Source: a virus
Virus record (IMG/VR): IMGVR_UViG_3300045988_039373
Span: 22,795-86,794 of that record
Direction: 5' to 3' (one strand)
DNA length: 64,000 nt
In this document: positions 582-6,492 of the stretch, one piece after another
Layout: every line of letters starts with the position of its first letter
Numbering within the stretch: position 1 is the stretch's first letter
Translations under genes and position numbers: made by a program
The notes under the pieces: model-generated
Databases searched by the model: none
Told to the model about the DNA's origin: nothing
What the model saw: the letters and a program-made list of their open reading frames with translations, nothing else

Positions 582-776
582 TTAATTGTATGACATTGTA
601 GAACTAACCCAGGTCATATGCCAGTAGCGATATACAAAATCATCAAAATCCTCTACCTCTTTTAATAACAAGGGTATATCTGGTTCTCCCCCGTTCTTTT
701 TAATCTCAAAAACTTGGTAATAGAATTTGTTTACTAATCCTATACGCTTCTGATTTAAAAATTCCTTAGCTTCCAT
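582..776 (-). CDS. Hypothetical 64-aa protein between the two TS-fold genes
   Basis: ATG start verified at 776. Tightly packed in the operon, and its start overlaps the stop of the upstream gene. Confidence 0.5.
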   Translation of the reverse strand: MEAKEFLNQKRIGLVNKFYYQVFEIKKNGGEPDIPLLLKEVEDFDDFVYRYWHMTWVSSTMSYN

Positions 777-1686
777 TGTTCTTTTGTTTTAAAAGTTTCT
801 TTTTATAGGCTTTACGTTGAGAGTAAGAGATTACATTCTCCGGGTATTCTATATCCTCGTATTCAAGAAGTAATTCTTTTGCTTTCATTGATTTATATGT
901 TTCCTCATATAAATCTGGTCGAAGCACTTTAAAACTTCTAAAGAATACCTTGAATGAAGAAAATTCCTTCTCGGTACCATTTTGGAATTTTTTCCATATC
1001 TCTTTTATCCTCTTATTCCATGAATTCTCTTCTGCTCCCTTAAGTACCTTCTTCAAAGGTTTATGGGTATGATACATTAGAAGTGTCTCCACATTTCCGT
1101 ACATTTGAGTCGCAAATAGGTTGATTTGTACTGACTGGTCCGGCCCATATACGTACTCTGACATTCGTTGAATTAATAGGAAATCGAATATTAACCTCTT
1201 GGTAATCTCCGAAGCCCGAACTACCATTGTAATAACTGGGATGTCTTCCCCGAATCGTTTTGAAAAAGTCGCAGCTATTAGACATTGTTTACCGTTATCA
1301 TGGTGATTGTTAAACATATAAGTTATATTGTAATTCTGATTATACTTATTTCTCAGTACTCTCAGTTTACTACGCAACAAGTCAAGCTTATTAAAGTCTA
1401 TGTAGTTATTCAATAAGCTAGTCCACTTAGTTTCTTTATAATTGAAACATCTCCCATAATCAAATTCTGGGTCTACCCAGGCATTGCGTATCTTTATGAA
1501 TACGTTATACACTACTGCTACCCCACTATTGGCAATAGCCCCCTTTGCAAATAAAGCAGGCTCTAATCTTAGGAATCCCTCATTGAGTTTTTCCCATGCC
1601 TCTTGTGAAGTAGCAAATTCTAACGAATGGAGGGACTCCTCCGGATTAAGTTGAAGTCCCTCTAATTTATGGTTCCATCCTGACAT
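766..1686 (-). CDS. Highly divergent thymidylate-synthase-fold paralogue (possible dCMP-specific hydroxymethylase or methylase)
   Basis: Start re-set to the ATG at 1686 (MSGWNHKLEG...), directly after the TAG stop of the upstream gene at 1690-1688. Has a Cys block GKQCLIAATFSKR, then MVVRASEITKRLIFDFLLIQRMSEYV (aligns by eye to YQRSxDxxLGxPFNIASY), then INLFATQMYGN (aligns to GDxHxYxNH). Confidence 0.5.
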   Translation of the reverse strand: MSGWNHKLEGLQLNPEESLHSLEFATSQEAWEKLNEGFLRLEPALFAKGAIANSGVAVVYNVFIKIRNAWVDPEFDYGRCFNYKETKWTSLLNNYIDFNKLDLLRSKLRVLRNKYNQNYNITYMFNNHHDNGKQCLIAATFSKRFGEDIPVITMVVRASEITKRLIFDFLLIQRMSEYVYGPDQSVQINLFATQMYGNVETLLMYHTHKPLKKVLKGAEENSWNKRIKEIWKKFQNGTEKEFSSFKVFFRSFKVLRPDLYEETYKSMKAKELLLEYEDIEYPENVISYSQRKAYKKKLLKQKNNGS

Positions 1687-2535: not shown

Positions 2536-3075
2536 TTATTTACTTCCTGATGAACCAAAACCATTCCCTCCTCTACTTCCCCACATCTGGGATTCAGTAT
2601 AAAATTCCTCTTGTTGAATCTCTTCTGGTTCAGTAATATAGATAGGTACATGAATAAATTGTACCAGCTTCTGGCCAGCCTCAATAACCTGGGCTTCTTG
2701 AGAAGTGTTGTATACTCCAATGTGTATCTCTCCAACATAGGGAGAATCTACTATCTCGGCAGTAAAGATTAACCCTTTCTTAGTAGCTATACCAGATTTG
2801 TTTGCTGCCATTAACATAGATGCAGGAGGTTCTAGCAAACCTTTGATACCTGATGGGATAAGTATACGATGACCTGGTTTTAAAGCTATATGCCTTACGA
2901 ATGATTCACTAAAGGGTATATCCAAATCATATCCTCCTGAATCAAATTCATTCTTAGAGTGGATATCCTCTGAAGTCAAGTTGGTTGGTACATAAAAATC
3001 TAACCCAGCATCATTTGGGTTTGCTCTGTTGGGAGATACTACCTCCCTTACTTTGATAAATCTAAATCTGTTCAT
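2536..3075 (-). CDS. dut: Trimeric dUTP pyrophosphatase
   Basis: Classical dUTPase motifs: AGLDFYVP, NKSGIATKKGLI, IVDSPYVGEIHIGVYN, GQKLVQF, and C-terminal RGGNGFGSSG. Confidence 0.9.
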   Translation of the reverse strand: MNRFRFIKVREVVSPNRANPNDAGLDFYVPTNLTSEDIHSKNEFDSGGYDLDIPFSESFVRHIALKPGHRILIPSGIKGLLEPPASMLMAANKSGIATKKGLIFTAEIVDSPYVGEIHIGVYNTSQEAQVIEAGQKLVQFIHVPIYITEPEEIQQEEFYTESQMWGSRGGNGFGSSGSK

Positions 3076-4420: not shown

Positions 4421-5908
4421 TTAACTCTTAATAAGGCTATGGTTAGGATGTTTCTTCCATAGCTTATCTAACAATATTACTTTCAATTCTTGTCTCTGAT
4501 AATATTGCTTCCTATGCTTACCATGCCTATCTAAATAAGGGCCAGGATAATGAAGGTCATCCAGGTATACTTTCTTTTTCGATTTATCGGTTCTTACCAA
4601 ACGACCAAGAAACTGAATAGATTTTTCCTGACTATCCATGCTTGCTGCATTAAGTAAATACCTAAGCTTAGGAAAGTTTTTACCTCGAGCAATGATTGTA
4701 GTTGATACCAAGATATCTATTTTGCCTTCCCTAAAATCCATCATTATTTGTTGTCTTAACTTAGAGGGAGTATTAACATGCACATAGGCAATATTATAGG
4801 CATCGCCCAGTTTCTTTTTAAAGAACTTATATAGATTTTCACAATGTGCAATATGCTTGCATACTACAAGAGCAGGATATCTACCTTGATTAATATTCCA
4901 TCGTAATCGATTATAAGCCATGGTCCACGCGGTATTATTTTCGGTAATAGAATCATCATATATCTCCTTATAGGATATACAATCAGATTCCCAATTACCA
5001 TACCAAGGTTTACCGGGTACCATCTTTACGATAGTTTTAGTTGAGTAACCCTTCTTGATGGAATCCTTAAGTTTAAACTCAGCAATCACTTTACCAAAGA
5101 AACATTCTAGGTTCATATTCTTAACCCTATCCTTAGCAAGCTTACTCATATAAATCGTACCAGATAATCCTATACGAATTCTGGTATTAAATAACCGAGT
5201 GATTACATTCTGATATTGCTTACTACCTCCTTGGTCAGCCTCATCTATAAGTACCATATCTATTTGAGATAATTCCTTTTGATAGAATCTCATATTTCTC
5301 GAAATAGATTGAACCATACCTATAGTAAAGTTACTCCAGTTTAAAACCTTGCCTTGAACAAAAGTGATATCTTCTCCGGGAAGATATTGCTTAAATTCTT
5401 CTCTAGCTTGATTTAACCAATCCGAATCATTAGTTATTAGCAAAGTCTTTAACTGCTTCTTATAGGATAAATATAAAGACGACATGATAAGTGTTTTACC
5501 TGCATTAACAGTGTAATCTAATACGCCAATATGAAAAGGTGTATTCCCTATCTTATTATTGATAACTGCCTTAACAGCTTTCTCTTGCTCTGGTCTTAAT
5601 TTATATTTGCCTATATTCGTAACTACTTTACTGACTTTAGGTAAAGGTTGTCTCATATCTACAACTTTAGGTTTAATCCCCATCTCAATACACATATCGT
5701 ATACTTTGGGAAGTAAACCTATTTTAAATTGCCCAGTCTTGGTGATGTAATGAATCTTACCGTCCCAATTCTGCATACCTCTTTGCCTTGTACGTAAGTA
5801 GAAAGCATTTGGATGTCGAATAGCGAACTCATTATAAAGTTTTTGTGCGAACTTAAGAGGTAAGTCGAGTTCGCACATATTCCCATTCTGTATGATTATC
5901 CTACTCAT
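4421..5908 (-). CDS. Superfamily-2 DNA helicase (DEAD/ResIII, UvsW-like)
   Basis: Walker A VNAGKTLIM, DEAD box LIDEAD, motif III LSGT, motif VI TTIIARGKNFP. Confidence 0.8.
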   Translation of the reverse strand: MSRIIIQNGNMCELDLPLKFAQKLYNEFAIRHPNAFYLRTRQRGMQNWDGKIHYITKTGQFKIGLLPKVYDMCIEMGIKPKVVDMRQPLPKVSKVVTNIGKYKLRPEQEKAVKAVINNKIGNTPFHIGVLDYTVNAGKTLIMSSLYLSYKKQLKTLLITNDSDWLNQAREEFKQYLPGEDITFVQGKVLNWSNFTIGMVQSISRNMRFYQKELSQIDMVLIDEADQGGSKQYQNVITRLFNTRIRIGLSGTIYMSKLAKDRVKNMNLECFFGKVIAEFKLKDSIKKGYSTKTIVKMVPGKPWYGNWESDCISYKEIYDDSITENNTAWTMAYNRLRWNINQGRYPALVVCKHIAHCENLYKFFKKKLGDAYNIAYVHVNTPSKLRQQIMMDFREGKIDILVSTTIIARGKNFPKLRYLLNAASMDSQEKSIQFLGRLVRTDKSKKKVYLDDLHYPGPYLDRHGKHRKQYYQRQELKVILLDKLWKKHPNHSLIKS

Positions 5909-6492
5909 TTGATAATTACCGTTACACCCTTAGTAGATTTATCCATACCCATTGCTTCCTTGAGAAGTTTAATATGATGCTCCTCATCCGCAATCAATTT
6001 CTCAAGGAAATAATTCACGTCATCGTAATCTGGGCGTTCTTCGTATTGAGCAATTGCTCTTTGAATTTTCTTGTAGTGACCAATAGTTTCTATCTCGGAA
6101 TTCAAAGCAATCTTTAAAGCTTGTTCCCAAGTAGAACCAATCTCAATCGTAGGATTAATATTCATGGTAGAGTAATCCTCATAGGGATCTGCCTTTTGTA
6201 AAAAGTCCGATATCTTATCAAGGTGTCTCATCTCTACCAAACCAATACCCAACATCAATTCTGATATTTCTTCAAATCTAGAAGACTGTTGGGTATACAT
6301 AATGATGGCACTTAGTTCTGAGAACTTGGCATTCTTCCAAATCACATAGAACATATTAATTATCTCATCAGGCCATGGTTCGATATCCTTAAAATCTGGA
6401 TAATCCACGGATTGGTCTGAATACTTGAGGACATCTATAAAAGCATTAGCTGCATCCTCTACTCTGTTTCCGAAAAATTGTAAACCTTTCAT
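5905..6492 (-). CDS. Ferritin-like di-iron four-helix-bundle protein
   Basis: Two ExxH motifs (VEMRHL and DEEHHIKLL), each preceded by a spaced Glu (FSELSA, NSEIETIGHY). Confidence 0.5.
   Translation of the reverse strand: MKGLQFFGNRVEDAANAFIDVLKYSDQSVDYPDFKDIEPWPDEIINMFYVIWKNAKFSELSAIIMYTQQSSRFEEISELMLGIGLVEMRHLDKISDFLQKADPYEDYSTMNINPTIEIGSTWEQALKIALNSEIETIGHYKKIQRAIAQYEERPDYDDVNYFLEKLIADEEHHIKLLKEAMGMDKSTKGVTVIIK

Follow-up and report, generated by a model that had tools for sequence, protein, structure and literature searches.

A gene on the minus strand at positions 766-1686 of the window analysed here (64,000 nucleotides, bases 22795-86794 of the virus record IMGVR_UViG_3300045988_039373, which comprises 86.8 kb and is complete with direct terminal repeats) encodes a protein of 306 amino acids, for which we use the name X. 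Its predicted structure places X in the fold superfamily of thymidylate synthase (TS) and dCMP hydroxymethylase, from whose other members it has diverged very far. Comparison with its homologues further shows strong purifying selection precisely at the catalytic positions, and the gene is genetically locked to that of a second, cytosine-type TS homologue within a deoxynucleotide module. In our opinion it is rather probable that X is an active, cytosine-directed pyrimidine-C5 enzyme which, together with this partner module, replaces or modifies deoxycytidine in the phage DNA. The carriers of X would probably make a modified cytosine.

The open reading frame (ORF) runs over 306 codons from an ATG at position 1686 to a stop codon at 766-768. 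Since its start lies only one nucleotide past the stop of the upstream nucleoside triphosphate (NTP) pyrophosphatase gene and since close homologues share the N-terminal MSGWN, we regard the ORF as real. The relatives of the source phage are contigs of 75-90 kb from human-gut samples.

To our knowledge, nearly every pyrimidine hypermodification known from phage DNA starts with an enzyme of the TS superfamily, and each new TS signature found so far (N177D, L143D/E, D169N) has stood for a substrate, a product or a cofactor that was new. X presents a further signature, in which Cys146 and Tyr94 of ThyA are kept, Asp169 is replaced by Glu, Asn177 by Asp and Gly173 by Arg or Lys, and Arg126/127 are missing. 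It has been missed by profile databases and is widespread, being found on several hundred IMG/VR contigs, in abundant human-gut phages, in phages of Clostridium perfringens, Pseudomonas, Serratia and Yersinia, and in the therapeutic mycobacteriophage Muddy. If X and its partner do make a modified cytosine, this would bear on the evasion of restriction and CRISPR, on the sequencing and assembly of X-carrying phages and on the immune sensing of therapeutic phage DNA, and epigenetic sequencing chemistry could gain new enzymes from it.

Fold, residue register and conservation of X

Sequence searches with X returned very little. Pfam gave a sub-threshold chance match only and NCBIfam none, phmmer with the single sequence found no match among the PDB sequences, and none of 79 diverse members of the X family matched PF00303 at E <= 0.1. 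In PHROGs, X falls into the function-unknown family phrog_34294. When AlphaFold2 was run on a shallow alignment of sequences that are 74-99% identical, the predicted local distance difference test (pLDDT) score was 52, while a second alignment of 62 sequences at 35-92% identity, collected by a profile search, gave a pLDDT of 92.1 and a predicted TM-score (pTM) of 0.89, with all five models at 90 or above.

In a Foldseek comparison with the PDB, this model matched exclusively chains of the TS superfamily, at a probability of 1.00, and the cytosine-specific members lead the list. The top match is the CMP hydroxymethylase MilA (1.7e-5), T4 dCMP hydroxymethylase was matched at about 1e-4 and the flavin-dependent dCMP hydroxylase AfhB of phage HY126 (9iqu/9iqc) at 3.8e-4, and dozens of ThyA structures rank below these enzymes. 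The identity of 9iqc and 9iqu was read from the Foldseek descriptions, a literature search on both codes having returned no match. The best target-normalised TM-score, 0.54, was obtained with AfhB 9iqu; close relatives of X include a flavoenzyme, namely AfhB. Against BFVD, the model matched members of its own family first, followed by TS and dCMP hydroxymethylases. An earlier note on this DNA, made from the letters alone, had described X as a divergent TS-fold paralogue and had named a structure-based alignment with an AlphaFold model as a way of checking its reading; the TS fold that the model recovers, with TS-superfamily matches only, bears the description out.

The residue register was obtained with a reference alignment of E. 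coli ThyA, RB69 td, T4 gp42, RB69 gp48 and phage TS-like proteins. With the X family profile, hhalign aligned 181 columns at a probability of 83% and an E of 9e-6, and a run with 146 X and 85 TS sequences gave 28% and an E of 6e-4 in an identical register. An hmmsearch of PDB sequences with the family profile matched only 9iqc/9iqu (E 0.06), and here, too, the R...D of X came to lie on the R...D of the match. Against single TS sub-families the hhalign probabilities ranged from 1.5 to 39%, with RB69 gp48 at the top and the AfhB/gp48 branch (32-39%) weakly favoured. For X, the TS signal in the sequence is marginal, the signal of the fold is decisive and the residue register is reproducible.

In this register, Cys135 of X corresponds to the nucleophile Cys146 of ThyA, and the profile alignments show Asp168 at the position of Asn177, the residue of uracil/cytosine specificity. 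V156, R157, A158, S159 and E160 take the places of Q165, R166, S167, C168 and D169, R164 that of G173 and F167 that of F176. Further towards the N-terminus, W88, L91 and Y95 correspond to W80, W83 and Y94, the last being the residue of C5 proton abstraction, and towards the C-terminus L203 and Y205 correspond to H207 and Y209. The equivalents of R126/R127 are Q117/N118, which vary across the family, and the equivalent of position 143 is G132 (G, V or S across the family). On the minus strand of the window, the codon of Cys135 lies at 1282-1284 (aca, reverse complement tgt), that of Asp168 at 1183-1185 (atc, reverse complement gat) and that of Tyr95 at 1402-1404, and the codons of R157-A158-S159-E160 occupy 1207-1218, with Arg157 at 1216-1218 and Glu160 at 1207-1209. 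The placement of an Asp at Asn177 had previously been made by eye, and two hhalign runs and the hmmsearch reproduced it residue for residue; the Asp that had been quoted for T4 dCMP hydroxymethylase gp42 at this position is likewise seen in the reference alignment. It had also been remarked that the Cys block is retained, as the profile alignments confirm with C135, and that the QRS and H/Y motifs are heavily altered, which agrees with the change of QRS to VRA and of H207 to L203, with Y209 staying as Y205 in the X of the source phage.

Conservation was assessed over 146 diverse homologues, which share about 20-55% identity with the query. Y95, C135, R157 and D168 are invariant (146/146), and position 160 holds Glu in 145 sequences, Asp in the remaining one and Asn in none. 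L91 is conserved in 99% and K87 in 95% of the set, position 164, which takes the place of Gly173 near C5, is R or K in 99%, and position 250 is basic (R or K) in 89%. Every invariant residue of X that has a counterpart in ThyA is either catalytic or in contact with the base. In the distant actinophage members gp47 of Muddy and gp64 of Triscuit, Y95, C135, R157 and D168 are kept and E160 is replaced. As the catalytic and base-contacting residues are kept in 99-100% of such diverse homologues, the reading of X as a dead paralogue is disfavoured. The earlier note had left the choice between a new, cytosine-directed subfamily of enzymes and an inactive regulatory paralogue; conservation favours the former and makes the latter less likely.

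The X family comprises 151 clusters at 50% identity among 1.8 billion proteins, and a search with a 16-sequence alignment, which returned near-identical loci only, found at least 474 loci in IMG/VR. A pattern scan of 185,579 species-representative prokaryote genomes gave one match, on CALFLM010000093.1, and within the limits of such a pattern search the clade appears to be restricted to phages. CALFLM010000093.1 is an 82-kb phage-like contig that was binned into a Romboutsia metagenome-assembled genome and is probably a mis-binned phage. In the literature, we found no paper on X, on DNA modification in PMBT14 or P744, or on paired TS homologues.

Roughly the last 30 residues of X (...YSQRKAYKKKLLKQKNNGS; positions 769-858, minus strand) form a basic C-terminal tail that follows a conserved YPE(D/N)xI(S/T)xxQRK motif. 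The isoelectric point (pI) of X is 9.27, the median charge of the protein body in the family is about +8, and a net charge of at least +4 in the last 30 residues occurs in 45% of X proteins compared to 1% of their partners. Long homologues carry low-complexity tails with AT-hook-like GRPPK or RGRPRK/KRGRPRK motifs or with lysine runs resembling those of histone H1, and in a clade of proteobacterial phages X ends in acidic DDE tails that resemble the ones of SSB or T7 gp2.5; a clear GRP hook is present in 4 of 239 family proteins. Fusions of X with a TS were sought among the long family members, and only charged low-complexity tails were found.

The partner protein and the gene module

The partner TS-like protein has 247 amino acids, the first 189 of which are encoded at positions 2-568 on the minus strand, where the gene runs off the start of the window (full gene at L002:9820-10563). 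It matches PF00303 with an E of 1.7e-11, and among solved structures 9iqu/9iqc and MilA are the closest to it. Among 81 sequences of its clade, Y94, R126, C146, R166, D169 and H207 are invariant and every sequence carries the three substitutions L143R, G173H and N177D (100% for each), while position 127 is either Gln or Lys (R127Q in 79/81). The members of the clade are short, with a truncated C-terminus, and acidic (pI 5.42 for the partner, median charge about -5). According to published residue rules, N177D stands for cytosine, L143D/E for hydroxymethylation and D169N for a flavin-dependent 5-hydroxylase (PMC13326640). Judged by these rules the partner is cytosine-directed and probably of the folate type, and its Arg143 and His173 put it, as far as residues can tell, outside every characterised product class (methyl, hydroxymethyl and hydroxy).

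The pairing was examined from both sides. In 80 diverse IMG/VR loci that had been fetched with the partner TS, X lies on the same strand as the partner in 74, mostly directly upstream. Three of the six loci without X are contig ends, which leaves 74 of about 77 informative loci, and in the remaining ones the partner is preceded by a DHH phosphoesterase, by a DNA methyltransferase or by unrelated ORFs. Seen from X, all eight contexts (8/8) contain a TS-like gene within two genes downstream, and in several the genes overlap by 4 nucleotides. The idea of a new subfamily has hence to be widened, in that X is not a lone paralogue but half of a near-obligate pair with the Arg143/His173/Asp177 clade of TS homologues.

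The wider module consists of an optional dNMP/thymidylate-kinase-like gene, the NTP pyrophosphatase, X, the TS-like gene, an optional gene of the dCMP-deaminase family and PolA. In the window, where all of these genes lie on the minus strand, the order of transcription is dUTPase, NTP pyrophosphatase, X, a 64-amino-acid ORF, the TS-like gene and a family-A DNA polymerase. The dUTPase (2536-3075) is of the trimeric type. The conserved upstream neighbour of X (1688-2533) encodes an all-alpha (MazG/dimeric-dUTPase-like) NTP pyrophosphohydrolase of 281 amino acids and is a candidate dCTPase. In this protein only residues 191-281, approximately, match dUTPase_2/MazG-like models, the N-terminal stretch of about 190 residues being without assignment, and the counterpart in PMBT14 has 139 amino acids. 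The 64-amino-acid ORF (582-776) shares 11 nucleotides with the 3' end of X and has no family match; elsewhere its slot is empty or is taken by a gene for a GroES-like Cpn10 or a GIY-YIG homing endonuclease. In most other X-carrying phages, a deaminase gene directly follows the TS-like gene, whereas a search of the complete 86.8-kb genome for dCMP deaminase (PF00383) and dihydrofolate reductase (DHFR, PF00186) found neither. The source phage further has a P-loop AAA_28 kinase-like gene near recA and, within its replication and nucleotide region and just upstream of a superfamily 2 helicase, a gene for a rubrerythrin/ferritin-like di-iron protein of 195 amino acids (5905-6492, minus strand; Pfam E about 7e-7).

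The module occurs in phages of four bacterial phyla, Bacteroides-type gut phages among them. Among isolates, it recurs in the Pseudomonas phages PMBT14 and Almagne, the Serratia phages Serbin and Tlacuache, the Yersinia phage P744 and Brevundimonas phages; it is also present in ten Clostridium perfringens phages, including CPAS-15, and in the mycobacteriophage Muddy (gp49-gp44, with gp47 as X and gp46 as partner). In the Microbacterium phage Triscuit (MH047631.1 40049-43126), X (gp64), an Asp177 partner (gp66) and a canonical ThyA with Asn177 (gp67) share one operon, and because of this ThyA the pair cannot simply be the thymidylate synthase of the phage. For CPAS-15, the X gene (MN417334.1 13250-13999) is labelled 'colanic acid biosynthesis glycosyltransferase WcaC', which we reject as a mis-annotation, and two other GenBank records, that of Yersinia P744 included, call X a 'pyrimidine hmase synthase'. 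Asp177 TS homologues, PRA-PH pyrophosphatases, dCMP-deaminase-family genes and PolA have been statistically tied to cytosine-modified metavirome contigs (PMC8670742). X escaped both this study and a later one on the linked deaminases (bioRxiv 10.1101/2024.12.05.627091), since both were Pfam-based.

Proposed mechanism and rival explanations

While the catalysis of X, its base, the form of its substrate, its cofactor and the order of steps are matters of inference, a mechanism can be proposed by homology with ThyA and T4 dCMP hydroxymethylase. Cys135 would attack C6 of the cytosine ring, Asp168 and Glu160 would recognise N3 and the 4-amino group, Tyr95 would deal with the C5 proton and Arg157 would grip a phosphate. 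X would act with its TS homologue of the Arg143/His173/Asp177 type, with the NTP pyrophosphatase of the all-alpha type and with a dNMP-kinase-like P-loop protein, encoded in a module beside the DNA polymerase gene. The partner TS would make a C5-substituted deoxycytidylate on which X would then perform a second chemical step, or else X would form a mixed complex with this TS.

Several points weigh against this proposal. The homology between X and TS is marginal at the sequence level, as the 79 members without a PF00303 match illustrate, the hhalign probability swings between 1.5% and 83% with the alignments that are chosen, and the Foldseek TM-scores are modest (0.35-0.54), so that we take X for a deep branch of the superfamily. 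Moreover, X has no conserved equivalents of R21, R126', R127', S167 and H207, the residues with which ThyA holds dUMP at its 5'-phosphate and its 3'-OH. From the four-arginine 5'-phosphate site (R21, R166, R126', R127'), it retains the equivalent of R166 (R157) only, and the equivalent of Trp80 is kept in just 54% of the family. It is hence doubtful that X binds dCMP and folate in the manner of ThyA, and with the residues lost that grip the 5'-phosphate and 3'-OH, dCMP is not established as the form of the substrate, a point on which the earlier suggestion of a cytosine-directed enzyme also needs widening. A further such point is that X fits no known cytosine-type TS signature. The Glu at position 169 together with the variable Trp80 argues, at the level of residues, against a simple ThyA-like binding of folate. 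Lastly, out of seven Asp177 TS homologues with a linked deaminase, five produced 5-methyl-dCMP in E. coli on their own (bioRxiv 10.1101/2024.12.05.627091), so that some Asp177 TS need no partner, although these may not belong to the X-paired clade.

In a rival explanation, which we consider unlikely, X would be a non-catalytic partner of the TS-like enzyme, a pseudo-enzyme that either joins it as a subunit of a heterodimer or acts as its regulator. TS enzymes are obligate dimers with active sites shared between the subunits. The genes of X and its partner are nearly always adjacent and often translationally coupled; X lacks His207, Ser167 and the Arg126/127 loop, which in TS is donated to the site of the other subunit, while the partner has exchanged Arg127 for Gln in 79/81 sequences; and the two proteins are oppositely charged (pI 9.27 and about +8 versus pI 5.42 and about -5). 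However, conservation at 99-100% over phages of four host phyla, as seen for the equivalents of Cys146, Tyr94 and Arg166 and for the Glu and Asp that replace Asp169 and Asn177, is not what one would expect of a pseudo-enzyme, and no fusion of X with a TS was seen among the long family members. A heterodimer could, besides, still catalyse in the site of X and would then overlap with the reading of X as an active enzyme. The view that X resembles TS by accident only, its Cys/Arg/Asp pattern having arisen by chance in some unrelated fold, is hardly credible and already close to refuted. The missing Pfam and NCBIfam matches, the pLDDT of 52 in the first AlphaFold2 run and the low hhalign probabilities in some set-ups would fit it, but the confident model matches TS-superfamily chains throughout at a probability of 1.00, three independent alignment methods agree on the register, the invariant residues of X correspond one-to-one with TS catalytic residues, and GenBank records already name homologues 'pyrimidine hmase synthase'.

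It can also be imagined that X acts on cytosine in a form other than free dCMP, either within DNA after replication or as dCTP or a modified dCTP. X has selectively lost its grip on the 5'-phosphate dianion and on the free 3'-OH, while its residues for catalysis and base contact are invariant; new conserved basic residues have appeared (K87, R/K164, R/K250); the protein is basic, with Lys-rich or AT-hook-like tails in several lineages and acidic, SSB-like ones in others; and the linked deaminase family, which turns 5-methyl-dCTP into dTTP, prefers triphosphates (bioRxiv 10.1101/2024.12.05.627091). The charged tails could, however, merely tether X to the replisome, and just 4/239 proteins show the clear hook. 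We know of no TS-fold enzyme that acts on a polymer or a triphosphate, and we regard an action of X on DNA, dCTP or a modified dCTP as quite improbable. Returning to X as an active enzyme, one could speculate further that X and its partner form an undescribed two-enzyme TS-fold system, whose product would be a cytosine derivative other than 5-methyl-, 5-hydroxymethyl- or 5-hydroxycytosine and in which X would use covalent catalysis from Cys to C6 on a substrate that is not a free 5'-monophosphate. In the boldest version, X would work on cytosine, or on the C5-substituted cytosine of its partner, within DNA, or on a triphosphate, and it would be the first enzyme of this fold known to handle a polynucleotide. 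This idea is based on the selective loss of the residues that hold the ends of a mononucleotide, on the invariant basic residues newly present near C5 and on the tails, which are basic or AT-hook-like, and we consider it rather unlikely as a whole.

Comparison with known systems

With T4 gp42 dCMP hydroxymethylase (1b5d, 6a9a) and MilA (5jnh), which are among its top Foldseek matches, X has the fold in common, together with the Cys nucleophile, the equivalents of Arg166 and Tyr94, the Asp at the Asn177 position and a setting in a phage nucleotide module, where a pyrophosphatase of the dCTPase type and a dNMP kinase are also encoded. It differs from them by a Gly (G/V/S) at position 143, where the hydroxymethylases have Asp or Glu, by the Glu at Asp169, by the lack of the Arg126/127 pair, of His207 and of a PF00303 match, by a helical C-terminal extension of about 100 residues with a charged tail, and by its association with a second TS homologue; the TM-scores are 0.36-0.43. 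As position 143 is not acidic and position 169 is Glu, we reject the label of a dCMP hydroxymethylase for X on the residue rules (PMC13326640). The flavin-dependent 5-hydroxy-dCMP synthases (HY126 AfhB 9iqc/9iqu, RB69 gp48, DLP3 gp80; PMC13326640) share with X an N-terminal helix motif, Asp177, a short TS core and the departure from Asp169. X nevertheless has neither their D169N, a near-invariant Glu being found instead, nor Glu143, nor the Arg126/127 pair, and the label of a 5-hydroxy-dCMP synthase is rejected since the diagnostic D169N is missing (0/146 Asn) and position 143 does not fit.

The dCMP C5-methyltransferase modules of the Xp12/PaMx74 type resemble the X module in their layout, their place beside PolA and their Asp177 TS, and a gene of the dCMP-deaminase family also follows in many X phages. 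X was sought in the 5-methylcytosine phage PaMx74 and not found, the layout there being pyrophosphatase, ThyA-like TS with Asp177, deaminase and DHFR. The TS of PaMx74 is of full length and ThyA-like, with R21, E58, R126/R127 and G173 kept and 145 bits on PF00303, whereas the X-paired clade is short and has Arg143/His173, and the source phage lacks the deaminase and DHFR. For X itself the label of a dCMP methylase is rejected, because the intact phosphate and folate sites of the PaMx74 type are missing and the residues at 143 and 169 do not fit.

Compared with canonical ThyA (E. coli, PF00303), finally, X retains the alpha/beta core of the fold as well as counterparts of Cys146, Arg166, Tyr94 and Phe176; Trp80 and Tyr209 are kept as well in the X of the source phage, although Tyr209 is not conserved across the family. 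At about 10% identity, it differs in Asn177 to Asp, Asp169 to Glu, Gln165 to Val and His147 to Leu, in the loss of His207 and of the phosphate-binding arginines other than the R166 equivalent, and in its C-terminus. X belongs to the TS fold superfamily but, judged by its residues, stands outside the hydroxymethylase, hydroxylase and methylase classes.

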